Source: an uncultured virus (IMG/VR IMGVR_UViG_2534682017_000001) (Duplodnaviria; Heunggongvirae; Uroviricota; Caudoviricetes). From it: a stretch of 64,000 nucleotides of DNA. This document shows, piece by piece, positions 4,047 through 57,963 of the stretch. A program made the translations under genes and the position numbers. The stretch lies in the IMG/VR virus record IMGVR_UViG_2534682017_000001; one strand, written 5' to 3'. Each line of letters opens with the position of its first letter. Within the stretch, counting starts at the first letter, position 1. The notes below the pieces were generated by a model. That model did no database searches. It was given only the letters and a program-made list of their open reading frames with translations, and was not told the DNA's origin.

Positions 4047-5360
4047 GTGGATATTCTAATTGTAGGGAATGGTTTTGATCTATCCCATTTTTTACCAACT
4101 AAATATGACCATTTTATGGAAGCAATGAAATCCATTGAAGGCTTTCAAGGTTCATCTGGAATGGAATTTGATGATATTTATAAAATTTTATATGTAAAAG
4201 AAGCATATTTTTTCAATAAAACAAAAGAACTATATAAATATGACTTAATTAAATTAGATAAAGACCAAGTTCAGACATTTAAAGTAATGCTTCAGCAAAA
4301 TATTTGGTATAAATATTTCTTAAATCACGTTAATGATATTCAAACTTGGATTGACTTTGAGCAAAAAATCGAAGAAGCACTTATACATGCAGTAAAGGCA
4401 ATAAATATTGTTAATGAAAAACATTCAACTACTAGATTTTTTAACTCACCAATTTTCACTACACCCCGAGACAATCCAAACTCTTACTTTTTCACTGAGT
4501 TTCAATTTAATATACTTACATGTTTAACTTTTATTATACCAAATCCTCAGAATGCATCTGCTTCTGTTCGAGTGGGGTCATTAAATAGTAATTACTTTAA
4601 ATCACCCGTTAGTGAAATCTATGGCTTAGATAGTTCTAAATTTATTTCTTTCTTACAAAAAGAACTCGATAAATTTATAGAGATATTTAATCTATATTTA
4701 GAGTTAATAATTAATAACTTAGTTCCTATTCAAATGTTTAAAAAAGATAAATTAAAAGAGATAGATAAAGTTTATTCATTTAATTACACAAATACATTTG
4801 AAAAATTTTATAATAATGAAATAAATATAAATTATCTGCATGGAAAATTTGGTTCTAATCAAAATTTAGTTCTTGGAATTTCAGATCTCAATGATGCATC
4901 TCTTAAAAGATTAAAAGCATATGGTTTTACAAAATATCATCAGAAATTATTAAATGAAACTGATTATACATTTTTACATGAAATTATTACAAAATATAAT
5001 GATGATTTAAAGGATCATGAAAATGCTCTTATAAATTTTAGGTCAAGTATCACTGATCACGCTCTTAGATCTCATGCAACTCAAACTTTGGATCAAGTAA
5101 AGAATCGACTTTCAAATATAAATTTGAATTTTTATATTTGGGGACATTCATTAGATGTTTCAGATGAAAGTTATATTAAAGAAATTTTTTCTTTTAATGA
5201 ACATATGGATAATAATGTTCATGTAACTGTATATCATTTCAATAAGGTAGCAAAATTTGATCTATTAGCAAACTTAATTTATATTTTAGGGAAGGAAAAA
5301 GTAGAATATTGGATGAAGAATAAATGGTTAACTTTTAAACCTAATCCAGAAATTATTTAA
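4047..5360 (+). CDS. abiH: AbiH-family abortive infection protein
   Basis: 'ILIVGNGFDL', 'WIDFE', 'SFNYTNT', 'YLHG', 'IWGHSL' motifs. Confidence 0.85.
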   Translation: MDILIVGNGFDLSHFLPTKYDHFMEAMKSIEGFQGSSGMEFDDIYKILYVKEAYFFNKTKELYKYDLIKLDKDQVQTFKVMLQQNIWYKYFLNHVNDIQTWIDFEQKIEEALIHAVKAINIVNEKHSTTRFFNSPIFTTPRDNPNSYFFTEFQFNILTCLTFIIPNPQNASASVRVGSLNSNYFKSPVSEIYGLDSSKFISFLQKELDKFIEIFNLYLELIINNLVPIQMFKKDKLKEIDKVYSFNYTNTFEKFYNNEININYLHGKFGSNQNLVLGISDLNDASLKRLKAYGFTKYHQKLLNETDYTFLHEIITKYNDDLKDHENALINFRSSITDHALRSHATQTLDQVKNRLSNINLNFYIWGHSLDVSDESYIKEIFSFNEHMDNNVHVTVYHFNKVAKFDLLANLIYILGKEKVEYWMKNKWLTFKPNPEII

Positions 5361-5548
5361 AATTTTATTGAAGAATAATATCTTTAAATTTAGAAAGAGG
5401 ATGTCTCAATTAAAAAAATGGGGCTATAACCTCTTTTCACTTGAAGAAATTCCGACCAAATGCACAATGAAGCGCGACAAGTTACGACTAGTTATTATTT
5501 ATCCACAACTTTTTAAATTTGAAATTTAACTAAACTCTAGCATATCAT

Positions 5549-5573
5549 CTTGAATATGTTACAAATTCAAGTT
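5549..5573. promoter_or_regulatory. Acinetobacter DNA-damage (UmuDAb-type) operator
   Basis: CTTGAA-N11-TTCAAGTT just upstream of the umuD RBS. Confidence 0.75.
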
Positions 5574-5585
5574 AGGGGATATTCT

Positions 5586-6086
5586 ATGAGCGAAATTGCA
5601 CCATCCATTATCCAGATAAAACCATATCTACAAAGTAGTATTGTTTTATCTGAAGCCCTATCAATCAAGCAAGTTATACCAACTACTCATATGCTTGTCC
5701 CCTATGCTCTAGAGAAGATTTCGGCAGGTTTTCCCAGCCCAGCACAAGATTACATCGACAAAGCTCTCGATATGAACGAGCACTTAATAAAAAATGAAAC
5801 TGCTACGTTTATTGTCAAAGTTGCTTCGCTTTCTATGTTGAATGCAGGAATCGAAATTGATGACGAGCTGATTGTCGATCGTAGTCTTGATGCCAAACAC
5901 GGCGATATTGTAGTCGCACTAATCGATAATGATTTTACGGTTAAGCGTCTGATGATTGATGAATCGGGTCAGTGGCTTAAAGCAGAAAACCCTGAGTATA
6001 AAAATATTTATCTGGCAGATGGACAGGAACTAATTATCTGGGGCGTTGTCACTCATATCATTAAAATGACAAGAAAAAGATCATGA
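5586..6086 (+). CDS. umuD: DNA polymerase V subunit UmuD (S24 peptidase)
   Basis: '[11 protein letters not shown]' cleavage region, 'SM' Ser and 'VKRL' Lys; RBS before ATG 5586. Confidence 0.93.
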
Positions 6087-9395: not shown

Positions 9396-9941
9396 TCATA
9401 GTGAAATACGGTTAGCGATCCAACCGTAAAAGAATTGCTCTTGAGTTGGATTGCGTTCACAAATTTCAATATAGCGTTGGCCCTGCATAATATTTAGTAC
9501 ACGCACCAGGACTTTCTCGCCTTCTTTACCTCTTTTAGATAGATAAGTTTTGAGTGCATTTAGTGTGGCTGGACCATAAATTCCATCTATAGATAAATCT
9601 GGCCAACCTGCTTTACCTTGATTGTTGAGCAAGTTCAAAGCACGTTGTAGAAGTGGTTTTGCAAATCCGGTACCACAGTTCACGCCAGTATCTAAAAGCT
9701 CTTCAGCAACAGCTGATGAAATAGAATTCACCTGGTCAAAACGTGGAGCTGTCCAGTACTGTTTTTTATAAACGGCTTTTGCGGTTTCAAGGGGTAAGTC
9801 TTTCATATTGCCTTTAAAACCATTTGCTCGAGCAACTGCTTCAGTAATGCCGTATTTGGTTGCACCTCCTCGATCCGCTGGGTTATTTACATAACCACCT
9901 TCGCGTTTGATGAGATCATCAAGATATTGTTCAATATTCAT
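9396..9941 (-). CDS. Endolysin, glycosyl hydrolase 108 family with peptidoglycan-binding domain
   Basis: 'REGGYVNNPADRGGATKYGIT', 'DGIYGPAT', 'FFYGWIANRI'; start MNIEQ. Confidence 0.93.
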   Translation of the reverse strand: MNIEQYLDDLIKREGGYVNNPADRGGATKYGITEAVARANGFKGNMKDLPLETAKAVYKKQYWTAPRFDQVNSISSAVAEELLDTGVNCGTGFAKPLLQRALNLLNNQGKAGWPDLSIDGIYGPATLNALKTYLSKRGKEGEKVLVRVLNIMQGQRYIEICERNPTQEQFFYGWIANRISL

Positions 9942-10003
9942 TTCACTTTCCTTTTGACATAAAAAAGCCACCCGTAGGTGGCGCAGTTTTTTTTTAAGTT
10001 GGT

Positions 10004-10153
10004 TCATGCTTTTATAGAAGCAATTATTACATCCAACTTCCATATTAAGATTGGGATAGAAAACAAAAGAATAAATGCAACTATTGTTTGCCATAAGCCA
10101 TACTTTTCAATAGATACTTTCATAAGCTCCACTATTGGTTTAAAATGCTCCAT
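10004..10153 (-). CDS. Small single-TM protein, 49 aa
   Basis: AAGGAG RBS then MEHFKPIVEL...YGLWQTIVAFILLFSIPILIWK. Confidence 0.6.
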   Translation of the reverse strand: MEHFKPIVELMKVSIEKYGLWQTIVAFILLFSIPILIWKLDVIIASIKA

Positions 10154-42791: not shown

Positions 42792-44078
42792 TTAAGCCAT
42801 ACCCCGAATCCGCCTGACCTGAACAATCCGTTTAATAATCGGGAACCGTTTCGCTAATGGATAGCCACCTGCATCACCTACGTGGTCCAAACCTGATTTC
42901 TTGTCAGGCATTCCAACGTCATCATAAATCTGCTGTTCCAGTGTCTCGGTAAACCGTGGGCACTTATAAGTATTAACCTTTAACGTCCGTTCTCCATCAC
43001 CATTCAAGATCAAAGCATTCACGGCATTTAAACGGTCTTTAATGGTCGGGTTAGTATTATTCACCTCTACCCGTAAACCATGCTGCCTTAAAATGGCATG
43101 ATCTGATTCACTGCTATTTTTTGATGAAGTAGATTGCCCCGCAGCATCAGGAATAATCGTAATTTCATGATCAGGGAAACGTTCAATAATCAGTTTGGCC
43201 ATAGTTGGCGTATCACGAACTCCTACCAGCTCATTCAGCGCCAGAGGTTTACCGTCACGGATCACATACACCACGGCGGCCATTTTCAGAACGTTAAAGT
43301 CCATACCGATAATTAAAGGTTCATTCGGCTTAATCTCTTCATCGGTATGGTTGAGCCTACGGTCAAAATCAGGATAAACAGCACCGCTGGTTAAGTTAAC
43401 GAACTGCCCACGTAAATATGCCTCAATGAGCTGAGGCGGATAGGATTCCCGTAAAGATGCAATATAGTCATCTGGTAGATTGGCCTCATTGTCATAGGTT
43501 GAAGCCTGAATCATTCCATAGAGCTTTCGTTTGGCCTCTGATTTATTCGCCTCTTTAACGAATTGCTCGTAGGTAAATTTAAAACCTTCCGGTGTAGTCG
43601 CTACATCAATACCATTCAACAAACCTGCCTGTTTAAAGCGCATACGTGCGATGATCTTACGCCATGCTTGCTGAGCTTTGTGGGTAGCCATAACATCGAG
43701 CTCATCAATCAGTGCATGACCAATCTTAAAACCGACAATTGTTGCCGGCTTCTCCATAGACCGGCAGATAATCGTGCTTCGATACTGACGACCATAATAA
43801 AGATCGACCTCTTTATTAGACTCATAGATTTTGGTCTTTAACCCCCAATCAAAAGCAACCTCATCAACTGTCGGATAAAAGATATCCCGAATCTGAGGAT
43901 ATGTCGGTGCAAAGTAGCCCAGCCTAACTTTGGGAAACTCCCAAGCCTTATGACATAAAGAACCACAACCCACCCAAGTTTTTCCACCACCAAATCCTGA
44001 TATAAATGCCCTGAATTTGTTTTCCATTTGAAGAAATCTAGCCTGAGGCACATTCAGCGTCGGATTGATGTTCGGCAT
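42792..44078 (-). CDS. Terminase large subunit
   Basis: Walker A 'GFGGGKT', Walker B 'LIDE', 'TTPEGF', nuclease 'GMDFN', 'DHVGDA'. Confidence 0.95.
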   Translation of the reverse strand: MPNINPTLNVPQARFLQMENKFRAFISGFGGGKTWVGCGSLCHKAWEFPKVRLGYFAPTYPQIRDIFYPTVDEVAFDWGLKTKIYESNKEVDLYYGRQYRSTIICRSMEKPATIVGFKIGHALIDELDVMATHKAQQAWRKIIARMRFKQAGLLNGIDVATTPEGFKFTYEQFVKEANKSEAKRKLYGMIQASTYDNEANLPDDYIASLRESYPPQLIEAYLRGQFVNLTSGAVYPDFDRRLNHTDEEIKPNEPLIIGMDFNVLKMAAVVYVIRDGKPLALNELVGVRDTPTMAKLIIERFPDHEITIIPDAAGQSTSSKNSSESDHAILRQHGLRVEVNNTNPTIKDRLNAVNALILNGDGERTLKVNTYKCPRFTETLEQQIYDDVGMPDKKSGLDHVGDAGGYPLAKRFPIIKRIVQVRRIRGMA

Positions 44079-44559
44079 CTTTTTTACTCGCATCTACAAC
44101 TTGAATAGTTACCTTGACTGGTGTTGGATCATCTGCGCCTTCACCATCGCCTGTCCTGATCTTTTCAACCTCAAGCTGCTTTAACTCAATATTTAGGAGT
44201 GTTAAGTCATGGCCCTGCATTTCTTCCCGAACCTGTTTAATCACACCTTGCTTCATTAGCCGGTTGCTCTTCCAGCCTTCATAGATCTTCTGAAGTTCTT
44301 TAATGCGATAGGCTTTATTAGCAAGTGGAATGTCATAAATATTCTTTTGGAAATCCGCTCTGGTTTTATTAAACAAAGTCACCAGTTTCTTGCTTAGGTT
44401 TTTCCCCGTTGCTTTTGTTGGGTCATATAAAGCCACCTGCTGACGTTCAATTTCGATGTTAAATTCTTGCTTTACAGCATCTGCCACCTGTTGAGGGGTT
44501 TCAAAGCAGGCAAGAGACTGAACTATAAAGATTTTTACAGGCTCTCTTAGTGTTGCCAT
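44038..44559 (-). CDS. Terminase small subunit (DUF2280-like)
   Basis: 'KIFIVQSLACFETP', 'YDPTK'; overlaps large subunit. Confidence 0.85.
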   Translation of the reverse strand: MATLREPVKIFIVQSLACFETPQQVADAVKQEFNIEIERQQVALYDPTKATGKNLSKKLVTLFNKTRADFQKNIYDIPLANKAYRIKELQKIYEGWKSNRLMKQGVIKQVREEMQGHDLTLLNIELKQLEVEKIRTGDGEGADDPTPVKVTIQVVDASKKDAEHQSDAECASG

Positions 44560-44617: not shown

Positions 44618-45259
44618 TCAATTGATTACGCAGTTTCCGCAGCATTTGGAAATATCTAAATTTGAAACAAACGGCGGATTCTTCGCAACCTCAACAAGAC
44701 GTTTTACGCTCTTACTTGCTCCCCACCGTTTGGTTACACCAATAAACTCTTCGACATCGTGACCAGCTAAATAGTGCTTAGGTAAACCAGTTGAACTACT
44801 AAAGAGCATTTCACCATCTTCGTCACGTTCTACACCTATATGGTAAAGCTCGTGCTCAAGCAAAGCGCAGAATTCACTATCATTAGCTTTATCGCAAAAT
44901 GTGGCATCGATCGTAATCAGGTAAGTTGGTACAAATCCGAACCAGTCCCGCATCTGTTGCTCTTGTCTAGCTTTACGCCAGCCACCTACATTAAACATAA
45001 CCTTTTCACACTGCCCAAGAACCATGGCTTGTTTGCTTTTAAATGCTGATGAAGCCCAAGCAAATGCCAAGAACTCTTCATTATCATGAAGCAGCTCAGC
45101 AATATGATCATGGTCTGGATTGTGAAGTGGTCCACCAAGTGTAAGAAAATTGGCAACAACCCATTCCTTTAATTCTGGTGCAGGTTTTAAACGAATTGCT
45201 TCATTCTCTTCGGCTTTATCAATCAAGTCCTGTGGAGGAAATGGTCTGATCTGCTCCAT
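44618..45259 (-). CDS. Putative phage metallopeptidase
   Basis: 'LLEHELYH', 'HDVEEF'. Confidence 0.8.
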   Translation of the reverse strand: MEQIRPFPPQDLIDKAEENEAIRLKPAPELKEWVVANFLTLGGPLHNPDHDHIAELLHDNEEFLAFAWASSAFKSKQAMVLGQCEKVMFNVGGWRKARQEQQMRDWFGFVPTYLITIDATFCDKANDSEFCALLEHELYHIGVERDEDGEMLFSSSTGLPKHYLAGHDVEEFIGVTKRWGASKSVKRLVEVAKNPPFVSNLDISKCCGNCVIN

Positions 45260-45656
45260 TTTCAATTCTCGCTAATTCGCTTTTTATCCAGTTGATTGCA
45301 TAACCTGATTCAATTTGATGAGGTTCTAGGCGTTCAAATAAATAACCTCTATCGATAGCAAGATCATACTTACACAATACATTTGCTATCTTTCTACCAC
45401 CGCGACCAACTGCCCAAGGGCTACCAGCAATTTCTATAAGTACATTCAACTTCACAATATAAAAATCGAACCGCCAATTTTTAGTTGAATCAAATTGAAA
45501 TTTTCTTCGGTATCCAATTCGATGTTCTTCTAGTTCTTGAAATAGGACTTCTTCAGCTTCCAGATACTTTTCTTTAGCCTTAGGCAATGGTCTGCTTTTA
45601 GATTTTATTTTAAGTTCTTTTTTTCTTGTAAGCCAAAAGTATTCTTTATTGTCCAT
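45219..45656 (-). CDS. DUF559-like PD-(D/E)XK endonuclease-fold protein
   Basis: 'NWRFDFY...LIEI'; related to 53941-54345. Confidence 0.65.
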   Translation of the reverse strand: MDNKEYFWLTRKKELKIKSKSRPLPKAKEKYLEAEEVLFQELEEHRIGYRRKFQFDSTKNWRFDFYIVKLNVLIEIAGSPWAVGRGGRKIANVLCKYDLAIDRGYLFERLEPHQIESGYAINWIKSELARIENGADQTISSTGLD

Positions 45657-45708
45657 TTTTTCATCCATAAAAAACCTCCCGAAGGAGGTCAAGTTTATAT
45701 TTTTAAAT

Positions 45709-48146: not shown

Positions 48147-48557
48147 ATGAAATCTCTAGAAGTCGTTGCCGCAGTCATCCAACACCAGGATAAAATTTTA
48201 TGTGCACTTAAAGGTGAGCATAAGTACCCCTATTTATCGAATAAGTATGAATTCCCAGGCGGCAAAGTCGAAGCTGAAGAAACACTCGAGCAAGCACTCA
48301 TTCGAGAAATTAAAGAAGAGCTCAACCTGGATATTGAAGTAATAGAGTATCTATTAACTGTAGAGCACGCCTACCCCAACTTTAATATCGAGTTGGCCAC
48401 TTTTATGTGCGTGACTAAGACTATTGAAGAATTGGCTTTAAGTGAGCACCAGGATGTACAATGGTGCACTATCGATGAATTAGAACAGCTCGACTGGGCT
48501 GCGGCTGATATCCCCATCGTGAAATACTTACTTGATAATAAGACTGCAGCATGTTGA
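48147..48557 (+). CDS. Nudix hydrolase (MutT/NudG-like)
   Basis: Nudix box 'GGKVEAEETLEQALIREIKEELNL', 'LDWAAADIP'. Confidence 0.92.
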   Translation: MKSLEVVAAVIQHQDKILCALKGEHKYPYLSNKYEFPGGKVEAEETLEQALIREIKEELNLDIEVIEYLLTVEHAYPNFNIELATFMCVTKTIEELALSEHQDVQWCTIDELEQLDWAAADIPIVKYLLDNKTAAC

Positions 48558-49369
48558 AAGATTTTAGACAATTAAAACCAGGTACCATTTTAGATAATGC
48601 TGGATTACGTGATTACTTCCTTTGCTCACCTCAGGGCGGAATGCGTCGCTCTAAAAAGACCAATACCCTTATCATTGTTTCCAACCATGTCGAGTCCATC
48701 TATGAAGATCGATGGATTGGTGATGAGCTGCATTACACCGGGATGGGCCAGCTCGGTGACCAAGGATTAATAAGTCAAAATAGAACATTAGCTGAAAGCC
48801 AAACTAACGGCGTGTCTGTCCATCTTTTTGAAGTTTTTGTCGATAAAGAATATATCTACCAAGGTCCTGTTACTCTCGTAGCAGATCCATATCAAAAGAT
48901 CCAACCTGATGCTAATAAACAAGATCGGTTAGTCTGGATATTCCCGGTTAAATTGTCTGATTCAAATACGGCGATTAGCGTAGAGACCATAGAGCGAACT
49001 AGTCAGAAAAAGCAACGCAAGTATAAGAAGAAATCAATTGAGCAATTGATGGCAGATGCTCACGCTACAGCACAAACGCAAGTTAGCTACCGTAATACCA
49101 AATCAAAATACTTTATCCGTTCCGACGCAATTGCCCAGCTTGCTAAGCGTTTAGCGAATGGCATTTGTCAGCTCTGTGAACAGCCTGCCCCTTTTAAAGA
49201 CCAAAATGGTGAGCCCTACCTTGAAACTCACCATATTGAATGGTTAGCGCACGGTGGACCAGACACCGTCGAAAATACGGTAGCGCTTTGCCCGAATTGC
49301 CATAAGAAAATGCATGTCGTAAATGCTGAGGCTGATCGCTCAAAACTTAAAGGAATAAATCAACCTTGA
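48551..49369 (+). CDS. SRA-like + HNH endonuclease, putative modification-dependent (type IV) restriction enzyme
   Basis: 'YEDRW...HYTGMGQLGDQ' SRA-like; McrA-type 'CQLC...ETHH...GG.DT..N..ALCPNCH'. Confidence 0.8.
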   Translation: MLKDFRQLKPGTILDNAGLRDYFLCSPQGGMRRSKKTNTLIIVSNHVESIYEDRWIGDELHYTGMGQLGDQGLISQNRTLAESQTNGVSVHLFEVFVDKEYIYQGPVTLVADPYQKIQPDANKQDRLVWIFPVKLSDSNTAISVETIERTSQKKQRKYKKKSIEQLMADAHATAQTQVSYRNTKSKYFIRSDAIAQLAKRLANGICQLCEQPAPFKDQNGEPYLETHHIEWLAHGGPDTVENTVALCPNCHKKMHVVNAEADRSKLKGINQP

Positions 49370-49420
49370 TTTATTCCCACTCAATAAAAGTCTAATCAGA
49401 GTAAGTCTTATATTAAGGTT

Positions 49421-50446
49421 TCATAGACTAAAAACCGATATGATTATAAAACACTCAATTGCAAGAATCATTGCTATTGCAAAAAACCGATGACTATTAT
49501 GGGTTAATTTCTTAAAAAATAAACTTAATGAACGAATAGCAATTACAGTATAGGTACTAGCGACAATAGAGGTTATAACAATAAAGCCACCAACTAATCC
49601 CCTTAAACTCATAAAATTTGAAACCCATATGGAAAAAATTAATACAAAAGCAAGAGTAACAATTAAAATAAGATTAAATTTTAGCCAATACGATGCCTTC
49701 TTACCATCAAGAATTCCAGATAAAATGATAGAAAATACAATAGTTAAACAAATAATAAAAAACCAATGAATAAATTTTTCATCAAAATTAAATTTATAAT
49801 TTTTTTCTATGACATGAAATATTAGCATCACCGAAGCAAACAATGGAAAAAGTGTAACTTGTGCGCACACTTCCCTTGTTACTTCTGCATCGAACTCTTC
49901 AGAAATAACATTAGCAGTCAATTTATTATTTAATTGACTAACTGGCGTATTTACATTGTTACTTTTTAATGTAAATGACCTAACGTTTTCTATTTCATCA
50001 TCATTTTTTTTCAACTTATAAAATGGCTTTGTCTCATTTTTCACTCTTTCCCAGTCATGCTTTAAAAGTAATGAAATTTTAAATTGAAGCTGCTTTTTCA
50101 AATTAATGATATCATTTTGGTTTGACTCTAAAAGCTTATCTAACAATTCTAGTATATTACGATCATACCTATCTATTATATTTATTCTTGAAATAAACTG
50201 TGCTCTAATCTCAAGTTTTTTCTCATCATTTAAAGTTTTTACATCAAGCGAGCTTACCTCTTCCAACCACTTGCGTAGATATGTACGCCATTCTTTACGT
50301 TCTTTCGTAATACACTCAATTTCTATCACTCTTTCATCTTTTCTTAATTTAAGAAAAGAAATGATCCAACCAATAAAAATCGTAATAGCACTACCAAATG
50401 CGGCCCAAGAGAACGAAGAAATATCCAAATTCACACCTAATTTCAA
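49421..50446 (-). CDS. Hypothetical multi-TM protein
   Basis: N-terminal TM, 'RKEWRTYLR...LLKHDWERVK' domain, ~5 C-terminal TM. Confidence 0.7.
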   Translation of the reverse strand: MKLGVNLDISSFSWAAFGSAITIFIGWIISFLKLRKDERVIEIECITKERKEWRTYLRKWLEEVSSLDVKTLNDEKKLEIRAQFISRINIIDRYDRNILELLDKLLESNQNDIINLKKQLQFKISLLLKHDWERVKNETKPFYKLKKNDDEIENVRSFTLKSNNVNTPVSQLNNKLTANVISEEFDAEVTREVCAQVTLFPLFASVMLIFHVIEKNYKFNFDEKFIHWFFIICLTIVFSIILSGILDGKKASYWLKFNLILIVTLAFVLIFSIWVSNFMSLRGLVGGFIVITSIVASTYTVIAIRSLSLFFKKLTHNSHRFFAIAMILAIECFIIISVFSL

Positions 50447-50471
50447 TAAATTTAATAATTTAACTTTATGT

Positions 50472-51395
50472 CTATTCTAAATATTCAAAATTTCTATATT
50501 TTTCAAATACTTTATATAACCCCTTACTCTTCAAATAGCTATCTGCAATTTTTTCTTCAATAAAGGATAATGAAACAAAGTTGTTTTTGAATATTTCATC
50601 ATAAGTTTTTAGAAAAACAAAATAGTTCTTCGATATATCAAATATTAATTTATCTAATTCCTCCTCCTTAATTTTATATTTTACAATCTCAGAATTATTA
50701 ATTTTAGTATGCAACATTCCTGTAGAAGAGTAAGAGAATGGTGAATTATCAAAATGTAAAAGACCTGAAGATTCTAAATATTTAGCTTGGATATAACTTA
50801 AATCAAAAGCCTCATTCACTACTTCACCAAAAAAACTAACACCATTGTCTATCTTTTTTAATATAAGTATTAGTTTTTTTTCATCAATTGAAGAAAATAA
50901 ATCAATAGAAGGTAAAAAATTATTAACAATTCGAATAAAAGCTAATAGTTCAATATGAGCTTTAGTTAGTTTATCTATTACAGTGACGGCCTGATTACAT
51001 ATTAAATTATCAAAATCATTTGAAGTCTTAGATATCCTATTCTGAATTAGCTCAATTAATATTTCTGTATGTGCTTTATCTCCATTTCTAGCAATTTTTG
51101 TCACAACATCATTCAAAAGAAACTGAACGTCAGGATCTGAAAATTTATCAATTAGAATTGTCTCAACATTCTCTTCAATTTCTTTTTTTAATCTTTTAGC
51201 AAAAATTTCTATATTTTGTTCTGCCTGTTGTGCAGCAGCATCCCTTAATCGTGGAAAATTTGACTCAAAGAGTCCTAAACAATAGATCTCAACTTCCTTT
51301 GGCTTCAATCCCTGTTCAATAGTCAAATTCTGAATTACATCTGCTTGTACAGCTGTGGAATTATTTTCAGCAGCTTGTTTTTTATTTATCCACAT
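50472..51395 (-). CDS. LPO_1073/Vpar_1526-like protein with N-terminal low-complexity motif
   Basis: 'LFESNFPRL', 'FSDPDVQFLL', 'LIELIQNRI', 'IDKLT'; start 51395 or 51407. Confidence 0.7.
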   Translation of the reverse strand: MWINKKQAAENNSTAVQADVIQNLTIEQGLKPKEVEIYCLGLFESNFPRLRDAAAQQAEQNIEIFAKRLKKEIEENVETILIDKFSDPDVQFLLNDVVTKIARNGDKAHTEILIELIQNRISKTSNDFDNLICNQAVTVIDKLTKAHIELLAFIRIVNNFLPSIDLFSSIDEKKLILILKKIDNGVSFFGEVVNEAFDLSYIQAKYLESSGLLHFDNSPFSYSSTGMLHTKINNSEIVKYKIKEEELDKLIFDISKNYFVFLKTYDEIFKNNFVSLSFIEEKIADSYLKSKGLYKVFEKYRNFEYLE

Positions 51396-51645
51396 TATCG
51401 TTTCCATCTTTATTAATAGTTATATTACCAATACTGTCAGCTTGAATTCCTATAGAGCGATTTGAAATATTTTGACTCTTATGAGCGATAGTTTCTTTAT
51501 CTTTAGGAATTTTAAAGCTCATTAAGAAAGCTATAACTGTAGTTACTAGTGTTCCCGAAGAATCAAACCCTGGTTCTGATAGTGCCCACAAAGTTGCTAA
51601 AAGCATACTTATACCTGAAGCAAGAATAATAATTAATCTAAACAT
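51382..51645 (-). CDS. Small 2-TM protein with C-terminal Q/N/S/I-rich motif
   Basis: 87 aa; two hydrophobic helices around 'WALSEPGFD'; overlaps downstream gene. Confidence 0.75.
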   Translation of the reverse strand: MFRLIIILASGISMLLATLWALSEPGFDSSGTLVTTVIAFLMSFKIPKDKETIAHKSQNISNRSIGIQADSIGNITINKDGNDNVDK

Positions 51646-51690
51646 TACAAACTCACAAAAAATATTTATATATTAACTTGTAAAACATTT

Positions 51691-52593
51691 TTAAAAATCT
51701 AAATCTTCCCAAATGTCAACTGTTCTATGTTCTTGCTCATCTAAACAAAAAATGCATAAGTATTTATTTTTCTTCCTTTTATATTGTACAGTTCCTACAC
51801 AATAATCAATATGTTTCGTATCGAAAAACTCAGATTTCATCATTATGGATATACAATTTTTGCAAAAGAAACTTTCTCGTTCCTTATCAAAATCAAAGCA
51901 ATCTTTAACCATTTCTGAAGAACATGACGATATTGCACCAGCTAATTCATAATGTGTCTGAAGCATTTCAAAAATTTCTCCAGGCTCACCATCAATTAAT
52001 TTATGCCCCCCATCTGAATGGGCTGACTTATATCGATACCGATGCTGTATCCAATGTAACCCGTTAAAATTCAATTCCTTGTGTGCAGTTATGATACTTT
52101 TAAAAATTAGCTCTGGGCTTATATCCGATTTTTTATCAACCGTATGCATAAACATATTACGTAAGCTTCTAATTTCTTGAAACCATGGTGCAAAACTATT
52201 ACTAAGTTTTTTATCAGAAAAAGTTTCATAAACCCTAATTAAATCCTGCGCATCTATGGTATGAAATTGTGAAAAGGACATGTCTCCATTTTTATCTAAT
52301 TTTGGAAGATTTTTTGCAGTATTAGCTATCAATAGGTAGGGAGATATTTCAGCAATTAAACCTTTAAGCCGAAACTCTACAGATTGTATAACAAGAATAA
52401 ATGCTGAAATAAGTTTAGGTCTAGCAAAATCCCAATACTTATAACAATTATCTTCTTCTTCCTTTGAAGTCTCACAAGCATCTGAATAGTAAATATAATC
52501 ATATGCAAGATTAGCTACTTTTTCCCATGCTTCCTGAACCATGTGATCAGCAGTTATATAAAAATCTTCTTTTGTGGGAATATCCAATATCAT
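51691..52593 (-). CDS. HEPN-like protein with C-terminal zinc ribbon
   Basis: 'QSVEFRLK', Rx4H 'RNMFMH', 'CKNC...CIFC'. Confidence 0.6.
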   Translation of the reverse strand: MILDIPTKEDFYITADHMVQEAWEKVANLAYDYIYYSDACETSKEEEDNCYKYWDFARPKLISAFILVIQSVEFRLKGLIAEISPYLLIANTAKNLPKLDKNGDMSFSQFHTIDAQDLIRVYETFSDKKLSNSFAPWFQEIRSLRNMFMHTVDKKSDISPELIFKSIITAHKELNFNGLHWIQHRYRYKSAHSDGGHKLIDGEPGEIFEMLQTHYELAGAISSCSSEMVKDCFDFDKERESFFCKNCISIMMKSEFFDTKHIDYCVGTVQYKRKKNKYLCIFCLDEQEHRTVDIWEDLDF

Positions 52594-52860: not shown

Positions 52861-53397
52861 TCAAAATTTATTTAAGATAAAAGTAATTATAAATGCTAAA
52901 AAAATTAAAGAACAACATAAAATTTCTGCAAACGCCTTTTTTAGATAAGCTGCTTTCTCATTATTAATTTTTTTATAACTTGCAACAACTTCATCAATTC
53001 TGTCTGATAGCCCCATATAGACTGTTTCTTTTTCATTCTCTTGCACATATTCTTTAATTCCTGTTTTAGGAATTTCACCCAATTTGTTGATTTTTAAGCA
53101 TAAGAATAACCATCTTAAAACTGGAAAAATTGCAATAACGAATATTATTAATAGTATTAGAGATGCATAATACATTACACCTCTTGTTTCTATCGGTTGC
53201 GTTTCAGTTAGGTAAGTACGACACAATACTGTAGTCACCGTTAAGAATAAAGTAATAAATGTCAGATACTTGGATGCTTTATTCTCCAACTCCTTATAGT
53301 TATCACGTAAAATATCCAGATGATATTTTTTGTATTCGTATAAAAACTTATACTTTTCTGAATCATATTCTTTATCTTTTTTATCAATACTTTCCAC
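52861..53397 (-). CDS. Membrane protein resembling Pycsar-type TM effectors
   Basis: 'LENKASKYLTFITL' + TM pair, 'INNEKAAYLKKAF' + terminal TM. Confidence 0.55.
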   Translation of the reverse strand: MESIDKKDKEYDSEKYKFLYEYKKYHLDILRDNYKELENKASKYLTFITLFLTVTTVLCRTYLTETQPIETRGVMYYASLILLIIFVIAIFPVLRWLFLCLKINKLGEIPKTGIKEYVQENEKETVYMGLSDRIDEVVASYKKINNEKAAYLKKAFAEILCCSLIFLAFIITFILNKF

Positions 53398-53434: not shown

Positions 53435-53944
53435 CTAAAGATACACTATAAACCCATATCGACAATGCAACGCTGCCAAACCGCACTTAACGTCTTGTCT
53501 GGCATCATTTTGAGTACGATCTTCATTGGCCATCTCAGGCCATGACTGACCACGGAAGTAACGATCAATAATCGCATCCATCCATTCATCCATAACTTCA
53601 CTCTGCCCCATTAAATCTAAAATTAAACGCTGTACTGCACGGGCTTCATTGTCATCAATCTGGCACTGGGCTTTAGATTTAGTTTTACGGAATGGATCTG
53701 ATTCACTCACAAAGTAATTGGCGATGATTTCTCTTTGTTTCTTCTTACCTAATCGTTTTAAATGGCGCTGCTTTTCAACTTGTACCATCGCTGATGCAAT
53801 TGGGTTGCTATATGCGCCTGAAGGGATACCGGTAAAACTCTTTTGATCTAGCCATGCACCGAACTGATATAACCAACCTTCCAAATCGAACCGAGACCAA
53901 TCCACTGAGTGCATTACATGCTTCTTATCGATCATTAGTGTCAT
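53435..53944 (-). CDS. Late antiterminator Q-like protein
   Basis: Last gene of the early operon; 'WLYQFGAW', 'CQIDDNEARAV'. Confidence 0.7.
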   Translation of the reverse strand: MTLMIDKKHVMHSVDWSRFDLEGWLYQFGAWLDQKSFTGIPSGAYSNPIASAMVQVEKQRHLKRLGKKKQREIIANYFVSESDPFRKTKSKAQCQIDDNEARAVQRLILDLMGQSEVMDEWMDAIIDRYFRGQSWPEMANEDRTQNDARQDVKCGLAALHCRYGFIVYL

Positions 53945-54345
53945 TCATTTCCCCCAACCATTTTCTCTATCTGCTGAACCGCTAAACCTGACTTCACTTG
54001 CTCTGTACTGAACCGTAAAACTGTAAAACCCATCATTGCCGCCGAGTTATATTTCTCCATATCCCCGATATAACCTTTGCCTCTTGTGTGACGGCCACCG
54101 CCTGCCATCCAAATCCCGCCCTCAACCTCTACCAAAATCTTTGTACCGTTAATTAGAAAATCGGCTCTCCATTTACGTTTCGGATGGAATTTATATTCCT
54201 GCTCAAAACTGATCTTGCATGCTCTCAAGTGCGTGGCCAGTACCGCCTCACCTTCACTTGGTTCCCGTGTTTGCTTTGCTGAACGACGTTTCTTTGTCTT
54301 CACTGGAAATAATTCACGGTATTCAGCTAAACTCATGCTAGACAT
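53941..54345 (-). CDS. DUF559-like endonuclease / resolvase-like protein
   Basis: 'EYKFHPKRKWRADF', 'VEVEGG', 'DMEKYN'. Confidence 0.75.
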   Translation of the reverse strand: MSSMSLAEYRELFPVKTKKRRSAKQTREPSEGEAVLATHLRACKISFEQEYKFHPKRKWRADFLINGTKILVEVEGGIWMAGGGRHTRGKGYIGDMEKYNSAAMMGFTVLRFSTEQVKSGLAVQQIEKMVGGNE

Positions 54346-54411
54346 CCAAACCCCTTTCAAAAGCGTAGATCTCACTATGTAAGAGCGCTACGTTGACATG
54401 GTAGAGGTCTG

Positions 54412-55374
54412 TCATGCTGCCCCCTGCAATGAGCCTTTGAAGCCAACTTGCTTGAGATACGGTTCCCATTGTTTGGCCTGAGCTGGATCACTGAGTTTCA
54501 CGGCGATACGCGCTGCAAGTTGATCGTAGCTTTCCCCTGCAGCTGCAAACTGACTTGCGAACTCAGGATGTTGTGAGAGTTTTTGAGCGAAGGTATGAAC
54601 CTGTTTGTCGCTGAGTTTTTCTTGAGCGCTCGGCGCGCCTCGTACTGACGACCCTGAATTCCGGAAACCTGTCTGTTCACGTGCTTGGTATTTTCCACAT
54701 GCGTTGATTAACCAATCTGCAAAGTGGTAATGCATGAGCTCATCACAAAGATTCTTCTCTGCGTTGTAGAGTTCAAATGCTCGAAGCTCCCGATCAAACC
54801 AAGTCGCGTTTTTGATCTGCTCGTAAGTTTCCTGATCAGTTGCCAAGCGAATTTCTTCACCAAGTTTTTTCAAACTCAACCATGTTTTTTTATTTTTAGA
54901 TTCTTCTGATAGATTCTTTAAAAGATTCCGTGTCCCAACGTTGGGACCCTTTACCGGAATTGTTGGGACTCTTTCATGAAATTGTTGGAACTGTTCCACT
55001 GTTGGGACTGTTCCAACGTTGGTACTCTTTCCATCTAAATTTTCACCTTCTAACGGTCCCATTGTTGGGACTGTATCTTCACGACCAACTACACCGTTCA
55101 AGCGGTAAACGACCACCTGTTTTGTCTGACCTTTGCGCTCTCCAGTATCAGTAATTAATCCATCATCGGAGAGCTCGGCAAGTATCTTCATTACAGTTTT
55201 TCTGTCAATTTTGCAGTCTGCGGCTAAGCGTTTAGCGCTTGGATAACAGGTATGATCCTCACTTGCGCGATCAGCCATAGATAGCAAAACAACCAGTTTT
55301 AAGGCAGGTAATGAACCGCCTTTCTTTGTCGGGATATGAACTTTCCAAGCCCAATTAGTGGCATCTAGACTCAT
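54412..55374 (-). CDS. Replication initiator (N-terminal HTH)
   Basis: 'LLSMADRA...CYPSAKRLAADC'; contains iterons. Confidence 0.85.
   Translation of the reverse strand: MSLDATNWAWKVHIPTKKGGSLPALKLVVLLSMADRASEDHTCYPSAKRLAADCKIDRKTVMKILAELSDDGLITDTGERKGQTKQVVVYRLNGVVGREDTVPTMGPLEGENLDGKSTNVGTVPTVEQFQQFHERVPTIPVKGPNVGTRNLLKNLSEESKNKKTWLSLKKLGEEIRLATDQETYEQIKNATWFDRELRAFELYNAEKNLCDELMHYHFADWLINACGKYQAREQTGFRNSGSSVRGAPSAQEKLSDKQVHTFAQKLSQHPEFASQFAAAGESYDQLAARIAVKLSDPAQAKQWEPYLKQVGFKGSLQGAA
54885..55072. repeat. Phage replication origin: iterons plus AT-rich tract inside the initiator gene
   Basis: GTTGG(G/A/T)AC at 54940, 54962, 54984, 55001, 55018, 55064; palindrome GTCCCAACGTTGGGAC; AT-rich AGATTC repeats adjacent. 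Confidence 0.75.
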
Positions 55375-56461: not shown

Positions 56462-56818
56462 TTAATATCCAAATTCTTCTAAGCGTGGAGCTATAGAAGC
56501 ATGTTGGAAATCATTTACTTCCGATGCCCTATTCATAGAAAGCCGAGCAAGATAAAAAATTGAATCCACAAACTGCTTGTCATAACACTCATAGTTTTCT
56601 GGAATGATTTTTAGCCCAAGTAAATCCAACAATGTGCAACAGTTTTCAATTTCAGTTAAGTCATTGCTTTTCTTTTCATTTTTGATTCTTGATAAGGCGG
56701 TTGGATCTAGTCCTAAATCACTTGCTAAATCTTTATTGCTTGTAGATGCAAGGCGCTGCAATACAAGAGCAATTGAATTTCTAGACCTTGCGCTCAGGTT
56801 TTCACATACTTTGCTCAT
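56462..56818 (-). CDS. cII: CII-like activator
   Basis: HTH 'LASDLGLDPTALSRIK', 'LLDLLGLKIIP'; downstream of cro. Confidence 0.75.
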   Translation of the reverse strand: MSKVCENLSARSRNSIALVLQRLASTSNKDLASDLGLDPTALSRIKNEKKSNDLTEIENCCTLLDLLGLKIIPENYECYDKQFVDSIFYLARLSMNRASEVNDFQHASIAPRLEEFGY

Positions 56819-57174: not shown

Positions 57175-57963
57175 ATGGCTGAACTAAAGACAATTCATGA
57201 AATTAGATTTCTTAATGCAAAGAGACTAATGGAAGAATCCGGTCTCAAACGTAAAGAGTTTGCTGAGAAGATTGATATGTCATATAGCTTGCTGAGTCAG
57301 TATTTAGGTAAAAACCCGACCAAAAATATTGGGGATGACACAGCTATAAAAATTGAAGATGCATTTAGTAAACCGCGTGGTTATCTTGATCAGTCTGACT
57401 TGTCTAACTTAACCACTCAAAAAAATGTGGATGTTGTTGCATTTAAAAAATTTGATATAGAAGCATTTAAGAAAAAATACAATATTCCCGATAATGAAGA
57501 CGCTATTAAGTTTGTAGAGACCCCACTTAAGTCATTCCCACGTCAAAAAAGATATGTTCCTGTTAAGGCCTATTCAAAAATGGGGATGGATGGCTATTTC
57601 ACGGATATGGGCTATGAAGGAAATGGTGGGGATGGTTATATACCTACTCACGCAGCTGGTGAAAAAGCATATGGTATCAAAGGAACTGGTGACTCCATGT
57701 TCCCTGCTATCCGCAATGGTTGGTATGTAGTATGTGATCCCGATGCAGAGCTGGTACCTATGGAATTTGTTCAGGTTTGCCTTAAAGACGGACGATGCAC
57801 AATTAAAGAGTTTATTGGTATACAAAACGATGTATTAAGCTTAATAGCAGTGAATGGTGGTGAACGTCTCACATTTAATATGGATGAGGTTGAAAGCATT
57901 ACAGCTATCACAGACATTGTGCCACCTAGTCAACACAAGCATGATCACCCCAATGGCTACTAA
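57175..57963 (+). CDS. cI: CI-like repressor (HTH + S24 peptidase)
   Basis: N-terminal HTH, 'GDSMFP' Ser, 'TIKE' Lys. Confidence 0.92.
   Translation: MAELKTIHEIRFLNAKRLMEESGLKRKEFAEKIDMSYSLLSQYLGKNPTKNIGDDTAIKIEDAFSKPRGYLDQSDLSNLTTQKNVDVVAFKKFDIEAFKKKYNIPDNEDAIKFVETPLKSFPRQKRYVPVKAYSKMGMDGYFTDMGYEGNGGDGYIPTHAAGEKAYGIKGTGDSMFPAIRNGWYVVCDPDAELVPMEFVQVCLKDGRCTIKEFIGIQNDVLSLIAVNGGERLTFNMDEVESITAITDIVPPSQHKHDHPNGY

Follow-up and report, generated by a model that had tools for sequence, protein, structure and literature searches.

A prophage gene pair with a shared short motif as a candidate amyloid-type signalling module

The gene pair and its two protein families

The DNA examined here is a stretch of 64,000 nucleotides (hereafter the window) from an uncultured virus of the Caudoviricetes (IMG/VR record IMGVR_UViG_2534682017_000001), and it represents a lambdoid prophage. 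Two overlapping genes on its minus strand are the subject of this report: one for a small membrane protein of 87 residues, a putative effector (51382..51645), and one for a 311-residue protein of the LPO_1073/Vpar_1526 family, a putative sensor (50472..51407). A previous reading of the letters alone, which we call the sequence-only reading, had proposed that they form a candidate amyloid-signalling defence pair with a motif of 20 residues in common. Both open reading frames (ORFs) lie on the minus strand where that reading had placed them, and they overlap by 26 nt (51382..51407), or by 14 nt if the larger protein starts at M5 (51395), the alternative start used by the public Atlas record. The overlap suggests that the genes are co-transcribed and possibly coupled in translation. 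Among metatranscriptomes, a single identical contig of 204 nt was found in one run, inside the large gene (51069-51272), which does not demonstrate transcription.

The family assigned earlier to the larger protein was borne out by NF045477, which it matches with 126.7 bits (cut-off 45, E 1.2e-36). The match covers the all-alpha Vpar_1526/LPO_1073 domain, residues 33-271 (50595..51311, minus strand), and since it begins only at residue 33, the motif discussed below is N-terminal to the domain. PF28206, from newer Pfam releases, is annotated on 14/14 homologues of the large protein and on the Atlas clusters. Both families are contained in PHROGs, the small one as phrog_27656 (7.4e-7) and the large one as phrog_19542 (1.6e-28). 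When a local copy of Pfam was searched, the small protein matched zero families at E <= 0.1, and no NTPase domain was found in the large protein, the sole match of this kind being a sub-threshold one to AAA_22 (E 0.023).

The small protein had been described as having two transmembrane (TM) helices, and on this point the AlphaFold2 model, built with an alignment of 68 sequences, and the hydropathy profile were concordant. The model is a helical hairpin with a pLDDT (per-residue model confidence) above 90, followed by an unstructured tail (residues 44-87, pLDDT ~50). TM helix 1 comprises residues 2-23 (51577..51642, minus strand; pLDDT 91-96, Kyte-Doolittle mean 2.0-2.4) and TM helix 2 residues 27-43 (51517..51567, minus strand; mean 1.3-1.5), which come after a P-G-F-D-S turn that is conserved in the family alignment, as is W20. 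The tail should be cytoplasmic, a predicted topology, because the basic residues come after helix 2. The large protein was modelled with a mean pLDDT of 91.4 and a pTM (whole-model confidence) of 0.84. Its folded part extends from residue 36 to 306 and consists of a long helix of 44 residues (36-79) and a helical domain behind it; ahead of it, residues 1-35 (pLDDT 61-71) are devoid of secondary structure. In these monomer models, both copies of the motif are thus predicted to lie on flexible tails.

Searches with the model of the large protein were uninformative with Foldseek against the PDB (best E 0.63) and with BFVD (best E 0.11). VIA-align, run on 48,161 chains, gave a best Z of 6.4 to designed helical bundles, which is under the stated noise level for helical proteins, and a sequence-profile search of the PDB returned chance-level matches only. 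For the small protein, the Pfam families SLATT_1, SLATT_3 and S_4TM remained sub-threshold (E 0.26, 11.8 bits against a cut-off of 26.3), as they did among the 68 members of the small family, 4/68 of which matched with a best E of 0.023.

A short motif shared by the two proteins

The C-terminal disordered tail of the small protein contains QNISNRSIGIQADSIGNITI (residues 58-77, 51415..51474, minus strand) and the unstructured N-terminal tail of the large protein contains QAAENNSTAVQADVIQNLTI (residues 11-30, 51318..51377, minus strand). We confirmed that the two segments align without gaps and with 10/20 identical residues. When the last 40 residues of the small protein were aligned locally with the first 50 of the large one, a score of 54 was obtained, compared to 21.8±4.4 for shuffles that preserve composition (n=2000), of which 0/2000 reached 54; the similarity is therefore above chance. 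The rest of the two proteins had been called unrelated, and a comparison of the family profiles with hhalign (68 small and 108 large sequences) agrees: its sole match is the 22-column motif (probability 96.7%, E 3.9e-10). The DNA encoding the two copies is identical at just 35/60 nt, and at 11/20 third codon positions. Because of this low identity, we discarded a recent duplication of DNA or a gene conversion as the origin of the likeness, which is kept at the protein level.

The consensus of the small side (68 sequences) reads Q-x-Q-x-V-S-x-x-S-[IVT]-G-I-Q-A-G-[GR]-D-[VAI]-x-[IV], where each position of G-I-Q-A-G is kept in 61-67/68 sequences; the column counts are 67/68 for Q58, 63/68 for G66, 61/68 for I67, 67/68 for Q68 and 62/68 for A69. 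On the large side (108 sequences) it reads K-Q-x-Q-x-[VA]-x-x-x-[SA]-x-A-[IVL]-Q-A-x-[GR]-[DN]-[VI]-x-[IV], with Q11 in 91/108, A19 in 77/108, Q21 in 102/108 and A22 in 85/108. There is a steady difference between the sides directly before [IV]-Q, where effector motifs have G and sensor motifs have A. Among the small-family clusters listed, 116/120 carry G-phi-Q-[AGSV] near the C-terminus. In the large family, the first 60 residues of the best 150 representatives contain the strict core in 88 cases and the loose core in 132, the other 18/150 including fragments, variant motifs and N-terminally extended forms. The sequence-only reading had likened the motif to the RHIM core. At the level of the core this stands, in that G-I-Q-A-G of the small family fits G-phi-Q-phi-G, the signature given for RHIM, PP and BASS3 (BASS, bacterial amyloid signalling sequence) in the portion of the source available to us (10.1101/2020.01.06.895854).

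Conservation of the pairing and co-variation of the motif

Searches with the large protein or its alignment recovered 24 further loci (L002-L008 and L010-L026). Four are in reference genomes, namely an Acinetobacter sp., a Chlorobiaceae metagenome-assembled genome (MAG), a Burkholderiaceae bacterium and a Rhodoferax MAG; one viral contig represents the element of the Burkholderiaceae locus, two loci come from a phylum sample and 17 from metagenome contigs. In 24/24 loci the large gene is preceded on the same strand by a small ORF (55-111 residues) whose product has one hydrophobic helix or two and, at its C-terminus, a motif that matches the N-terminus of its neighbour. The intergenic gaps in these loci range from -53 to +14 nt, and the large ORF is interrupted in two of the metagenome contigs (L010 and L011). 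Two pattern scans of viral contigs, made at the DNA level with the motif only, gave 7 loci, 5 of which were small TM-motif ORFs, including one on the L006 contig. Each of these (5/5) was followed by a Vpar_1526 ORF that matches a domain-only hidden Markov model, from which the motif was excluded, with E values of 2e-43 to 1.7e-57 in three of the four new loci and 1.5e-31 in the other (L042); the remaining 2/7 were chance matches within large proteins. At L004/L006 and L017-L020, a single small gene is followed by two tandem Vpar_1526 paralogues, both with the motif.

The motifs of paired proteins also vary together. For 13 non-redundant pairs, the sum of the cognate scores was 631, compared to 419.9±37.6 when partners were permuted (0/100,000). 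The domains in this set are at most 64% identical; near-duplicates were dropped (L010, L012, L014, L015, L018-L020 and L023-L026), as were L006, whose element is that of L004, and, as second paralogues, L004b and L017b. With the main clade alone, 9/100,000 permutations reached the cognate sum, and with 18 pairs the sum was 841 against 607.4±42.1 permuted (0/100,000). Since neutral drift of linked genes alone gives no such excess, it indicates either co-evolution or repeated homogenisation of the motifs. Individual clades provide examples. In 4/4 Acinetobacter-clade pairs, both partners have two additional residues inserted in the motif, which neither partner has elsewhere; G-D-N-S-x-N-[IL]-Q is common to both partners in the L007/L008 clade; and both partners in the L022-L026 clade have a wholly different motif, V-N-x-T-x-N...G-x-H-[DN]...[VI]-G. 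The sequence-only reading had proposed to check for homologues with an upstream small TM gene and a co-varying motif, and homologues of this kind are what we found.

An exhaustive profile search gave 2015 cluster representatives (50% identity) of the large family at E <= 1e-3, and the small family comprises 391 clusters (90% identity), none of them named. The motif occurs in both families across Gamma- and Betaproteobacteria, Chlorobiaceae and proteins labelled as Bacteroides. In individual genomes the family is sparse (3/401 and 1/401 sampled genomes over the cut-off, and 6/5426 complete E. coli genomes), a distribution that resembles that of accessory defence genes. A single-protein scan of viral contigs and a tblastn search of a phage collection found no relatives, and a Bacteroides-type homologue used as a query had no matches in viral contigs. 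When the alignment of the small protein was compared to 401 genomes of the class, the only full-length match was to the gene of the window itself, and three partial matches (L035, L036 and L037) involved mainly the TM helices. L036 is an unrelated membrane protein, and L037 is a protein of 134 residues that combines the hairpin with another region. In L035 (979-1659, minus strand), the same two-TM hairpin, with a W...EPGFEP turn, is fused to pentapeptide repeats in place of the motif tail, which makes the hairpin look like a membrane module that can be reused.

Single-chain variants of the pair

Some relatives of the large protein combine the elements of the pair in one chain. Among the best 150 of the 2015 representatives, P0076, P0091, P0129, P0130 and P0149 have a TM helix, one or two copies of the motif and then the domain, which makes 5/150 TM-fused forms by inspection and 3/150 by a hydropathy screen. 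Free one-TM partners are colinear with P0076, P0091, P0130 and P0149 and have N-x-E-W-x-F-S-G-x-G in common with them. This colinear alignment indicates that the split and the fused forms are variants of one system.

In two other representatives, P0145 and P0152, an HNH nuclease lies at the N-terminus of the Vpar_1526 domain. Residues 10-103 of P0145 match the PDB entry 9om4, an 'HNH endonuclease' (3e-9), as well as the N-terminal parts of three 'SAVED domain-containing' chains (1.5e-5 to 9.9e-5), and its Vpar_1526 domain follows at residues 141-398. The matched SAVED chains are presumably Cap5 effectors of CBASS (cyclic oligonucleotide-based antiphage signalling systems). In P0152 a clear motif separates the nuclease from the domain. 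A search restricted by length returned no relatives of at least 549 residues among 7999 candidates, which is weak evidence. Judged from these architectures, the N-terminus of the Vpar_1526 protein is a putative effector slot, occupied by a nuclease, by a TM helix, or by a tail that matches a separate TM protein. By analogy, this would be the same logic as that behind the fungal and bacterial amyloid-signalling pairs.

Genomic context

In the window, the pair sits in a prophage cargo region between a Q-like antiterminator (53435-53944) and the terminase (42792-44093), which is followed by portal, head and tail genes. Further landmarks of the prophage are a CI-like repressor (57175-57963), a CII-like gene (56462-56818), an O-like replication gene (54412-55374) and, after the tail genes, an endolysin (9396-10094; phrog_315, 1.4e-53). 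A related contig (run X7) is 95-99% identical to positions 50300-51647 and departs from the window exactly upstream of the start of the small gene. This divergence places a cassette boundary at 51647, so that the gene directly upstream of the pair (51691-52593, minus strand), which encodes a 300-residue protein that has a C-terminus rich in Cys and matches no family, is outside the conserved cassette.

Elsewhere, the pair is found between the type I restriction-modification genes HsdS (6.6e-64) and HsdR (3.8e-144) at L022, next to a homologue of PD-Lambda-1 (3.6e-178) at L002, and flanked by integrases at L004, L012 and L013. In E. coli, a homologous pair (81 and 285 residues) adjoins the portal gene of P2-like elements, and in strain H3 it lies between gpA (replication endonuclease) and gpQ (portal). 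The gpA-gpQ locus of P2 is a defence hotspot, and Table S5A of the same source, as far as available to us, contains the accessions of both E. coli proteins together at least 14 times, as 'hypothetical' (PMC9122126). Three unannotated genes, WP_000756244, WP_001085272 and WP_000508501, accompany the E. coli pair in this hotspot (L045 675-3425 and L046 3976-6726, both minus strand). They also occur without the pair, in at least 33-45 rows of the available Table S5A against at least 14 for the pair (PMC9122126), and may be a separate candidate system. At L003, the Chlorobiaceae MAG, a full tubulin-family gene (4436-5752, plus strand; Tubulin 5.3e-48, Tubulin_C 3e-37), unusual for this group, lies ~600 nt downstream of the pair.

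Several other genes of the cargo region are worth recording. The gene 25 nt downstream of the pair (49421-50446, minus strand) encodes a protein of 341 residues whose N-terminus contains a TM helix, whose middle is charged and coiled-coil-like and whose C-terminus has multiple TM segments; the protein had no match in Pfam, NCBIfam or PADLOC and is not conserved beside the pair in the other loci. A consensus scan placed a weak terminator-like hairpin 3' of this gene (49351..49378, minus strand), which might mark the 3' end of the transcription unit. The convergent two-gene unit at 48147-49369 (plus strand) encodes a NUDIX hydrolase (PADLOC candidate PDC-S07, 3.3e-47) and a 272-residue protein with a C-terminal HNH (PF01844, 1.7e-10), a weak SRA-like N-terminus and a match to a type IV methyl-directed restriction model (2.8e-18); by its sequence matches, it is probably a modification-dependent restriction cassette. 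Just downstream of the Q-like antiterminator, a membrane protein of 178 residues (52861-53397, minus strand; phrog_23273, 3e-30) matches PycTM of PADLOC weakly (2.9e-4). Since no cyclase gene adjoins it, this protein may be a Pycsar-type TM effector that is orphaned or has been repurposed. Two DUF559/phrog_503 paralogues with a Vsr-like endonuclease fold flank the whole cargo region (53941-54375 and 45219-45692, both minus strand); with an identity of only 29%, they are not recent repeats. At the edge of the region, just upstream of the terminase genes, lies a transposase-like gene (44618-45265, minus strand; phrog_513, 1.8e-104).

A signalling model and its rivals

With moderate confidence, and on the strength of sequence comparisons, monomer models and genomic contexts, we propose that the pair is a mobile two-gene module in which a sensor signals to an effector through the shared motif, and that it serves as a prophage-borne defence of the abortive-infection (Abi) type. 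In this model, the first gene would provide a bare inner-membrane hairpin (a single TM helix in other clades) with a disordered cytoplasmic tail ending in a motif of ~20 residues rich in Q, N, S and G. The second gene would provide a cytoplasmic all-alpha Vpar_1526/LPO_1073 protein with the homologous motif on its disordered N-terminal tail, its domain acting as the sensor and the small membrane protein as the effector. Upon an infection cue the sensor would oligomerise, its tails would meet and adopt a stacked, amyloid-like fold of beta-strand-turn-beta-strand, this assembly would recruit or template the matching tails of many small membrane proteins, and the clustering of their TM helices would breach the membrane. 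The signal is probably transmitted by homotypic association of the tails, with cooperative beta-stacking as in Bab/Agp, BASS and FASS (fungal amyloid signalling sequence) pairs. The full version with amyloid templating is more tentative, and less likely than not. It is tempting to go further and speculate, again with more doubt than conviction, that the whole represents a widespread minimal amyloid-signalling Abi system with a RHIM-like G-phi-Q-phi-G core, at work in unicellular bacteria and in their prophages. The passage from fused to split forms would then show how the signalling itself originated: gene fission with duplication of the linker would have turned an oligomerisation element acting in cis into a templating signal acting in trans, where one sensor fires many effectors.

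A number of observations weigh against this proposal. The first group concerns the role of the motif. It may be an intrinsic oligomerisation or linker element and not a trans-templating signal, because it is retained in the single-chain TM and HNH fusions; the TM-motif-domain chains would likewise allow the simpler interpretation that it is an element of constitutive docking or tethering. Binding of motif to motif is deduced from sequence. Only 5/18 small and 6/18 large proteins score highest with their cognate partner, and the motif is largely a family-wide consensus; its specificity is therefore one of clades and not of pairs. Compared to 2000 shuffles each, six pairs are weak (L017b 52, L021 155, L022 77, L025 50, L026 38 and L040 75). 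The copies in the window depart from the core, with G-I-Q-A-D on the small side (4/5 positions) and A-V-Q-A-D on the large side (3/5). The likeness to RHIM did not carry over to the Pfam profile: RHIM (PF12721) had 0 matches in the whole genome of the window at E <= 10 and was not among the best 25 of the 71 families matched by the 68 small-family members at E <= 10. Membership of the Pfam RHIM family was accordingly rejected, there being no profile match in the genome or among the families listed.

The second group concerns function and annotation. In the absence of an informative structural neighbour, the label 'sensor' derives from architecture. A custom script made the ORF calls in the other loci, and outside the window the sequence was the only guide to TM character. 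At L005 and L008 the neighbours are housekeeping genes only. The earlier proposal of a defence pair fits the cargo region, the P2 hotspot, the restriction-modification operon, the PD-Lambda-1 context and the HNH and TM single chains, but it found no counterpart in PADLOC-DB v2.0.0, where 0 families matched either protein at E <= 0.1.

The strongest rival, which we nevertheless consider unlikely, is a static tether. The small protein would be a mere anchor, and the motifs would keep the Vpar_1526 protein at the inner membrane by means of a constitutive heteromeric beta-zipper; there the domain would itself act, for example by excluding the DNA of superinfecting phages or in a role other than defence, with no switching and no killing. 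The single-chain TM-motif-domain forms, in which the TM helix would simply be an N-terminal anchor, agree with it, as do the listing of Vpar_1526 in a fractionation proteome table of Veillonella parvula (PMC5491611, consulted in part) and the character of the motif as a family-wide consensus and not a pair-specific code. However, the HNH nucleases fused at the same N-terminal position point to a slot for effectors and not for anchors. Two tandem sensor paralogues can share a single small gene, and both tails are disordered and rich in Q, N and G, like known signalling motifs. For an anchor, fusion would be the more economical solution, and yet the split form dominates, with 24/24 loci against five TM-fused chains (three by hydropathy) in 150 representatives.

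Less probable still is a sequestration akin to toxin-antitoxin systems, in which the Vpar_1526 protein would hold the tail of a toxic TM peptide inactive, and infection would destroy or distract it and so free the toxin. In its favour, the small gene comes first and is tightly coupled to the large one, with which it overlaps, the homologous motifs make direct binding plausible, and the contexts in defence islands would fit. On the other hand, the single-chain fusions could not free a toxin by dissociation, the HNH-fused forms better suit activation, and the sensor activates the effector in the known pairs Bab/Agp and HET-S/NWD2 (10.1101/2024.11.07.622273, in the portion available).

A role in lysis timing, with the two-TM protein as a class II-like holin and the large protein as an antiholin-like regulator that binds its tail, is very improbable. 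It would agree with the small size and two TM helices of the former, and with the position of the genes downstream of a Q-like antiterminator on the late strand. We rejected it on the grounds that the endolysin lies ~41 kb away, behind the tail genes, and that the same pair is present outside phages, in a type I restriction-modification operon, in integrative elements and in plain chromosomal surroundings; in P2-like phages, moreover, it occupies the gpA-gpQ accessory hotspot and not the lysis cassette, and HNH-fused relatives exist. Finally, that the likeness is due to chance, or is the functionless and decaying remnant of a duplication at the gene junction, as slippage between motif copies encoded only ~40 nt apart could produce, is scarcely credible given the shuffles, the low DNA identity, the significant co-variation, and the conservation of the motif in both families across the taxa named above.

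Our search of the full-text literature, which did not cover the bioRxiv supplements on Bab/Agp and BASS, found no description of the pair or of any function for the family. The name LPO_1073 was not mentioned in any full text found, and Vpar_1526 appeared only in the proteome table cited above (PMC5491611, in part). If the signalling model is true, it would provide a function and a testable mechanism for a sizeable family of unknown function, the 2015 large-protein representatives and 391 small clusters. It would also extend immune signalling by shared motifs beyond NLR (NOD-like receptor) and TPR-GreA/B-C-PIN sensors to a new sensor fold, with the simplest possible effector, a bare TM hairpin, and with common Proteobacteria and gut bacteria of the Bacteroides type as hosts. 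The fused and split variants would be a natural experiment on the evolution of such signalling. Since a native E. coli version exists, in the well-studied gpA-gpQ hotspot of P2 and catalogued there as 'hypothetical' (PMC9122126, as far as available), the hypothesis is directly testable in standard laboratory strains and phages.

Comparison with known systems

The closest parallel is Bab/Agp of E. coli (BASS11), whose layout the sequence-only reading had described correctly, as the available portion of the original description shows (10.1101/2024.11.07.622273). Like the pair in the window, Bab/Agp consists of adjacent genes, in its case in a prophage defence hotspot, for a small membrane effector with a C-terminal motif of ~20 residues and a larger neighbour with an N-terminal copy. 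The domains differ. Bab has a Bell-like helical globular domain of ~90 residues, where the effector of the window and its relatives has a bare segment of one or two TM helices; Agp has the architecture TPR-GreA/B-C-PIN, and none of the Bab/Agp domains was found in Pfam scans of the window pair. The proteins measure 109 and 1094 residues in Bab/Agp, against 87 and 311 in the window, and the BASS11 motif, by its description, differs from the motif family of the window in having four glycines and a central conserved N. Amyloid formation and an Abi phenotype have been shown for Bab/Agp (10.1101/2024.11.07.622273, in part), whereas the window pair is known from its sequence.

The Bell/NLR pairs of BASS1-10 (Dyrka et al. 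2020, 10.1101/2020.01.06.895854, in the portion available) likewise carry the motif at the C-terminus of the effector and the N-terminus of the sensor, and their genes are adjacent and often overlap. According to its stated signature, BASS3, which is RHIM-like, has the same G-phi-Q-phi-G core as the window family. In contrast, the BASS1-10 sensor is an NLR with NB-ARC or NACHT and repeats, whereas that of the window has no NTPase domain or repeats and is all-alpha in the AlphaFold2 model; the BASS1-10 effector is a Bell domain, whereas that of the window is a two-helix hairpin of 43 residues with a tail and no Bell. BASS1-10 hosts are multicellular Actinobacteria and Cyanobacteria, and window-type hosts are unicellular Proteobacteria and Bacteroidota-type bacteria together with their prophages (10.1101/2020.01.06.895854, in part).

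HET-S/NWD2 of Podospora anserina resembles what is proposed here in that the sensor templates the effector, and in that the effector joins a pore-forming N-terminal module to a C-terminal prion-forming motif, as far as our sources on it extend. It is unlike the window pair in being eukaryotic and in having a HeLo domain, an NLR sensor and a motif that folds as a two-repeat beta-solenoid. With Cap5-type CBASS effectors, assuming as above that Cap5 is what was matched, P0145 and P0152 share an HNH of the same type N-terminal to a C-terminal regulatory domain; their C-terminal domain is Vpar_1526 and not SAVED, they have no cyclase partner, and the window pair has no nuclease. Like the two-TM and four-TM effectors of conflict systems (SLATT_1, SLATT_3 and S_4TM), the window effector is short, TM-only and separate from its sensor, with profile matches that are sub-threshold. 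Taken together, the pair falls outside the described families by their defining domains, and it matches the amyloid-signalling pairs in layout and in logic: the arrangement that characterises BASS and FASS, one short motif common to the C-terminus of the effector and the N-terminus of the sensor, with adjacent genes for the two, is present at 24/24 loci, and the motif co-varies within pairs at the level of clades.

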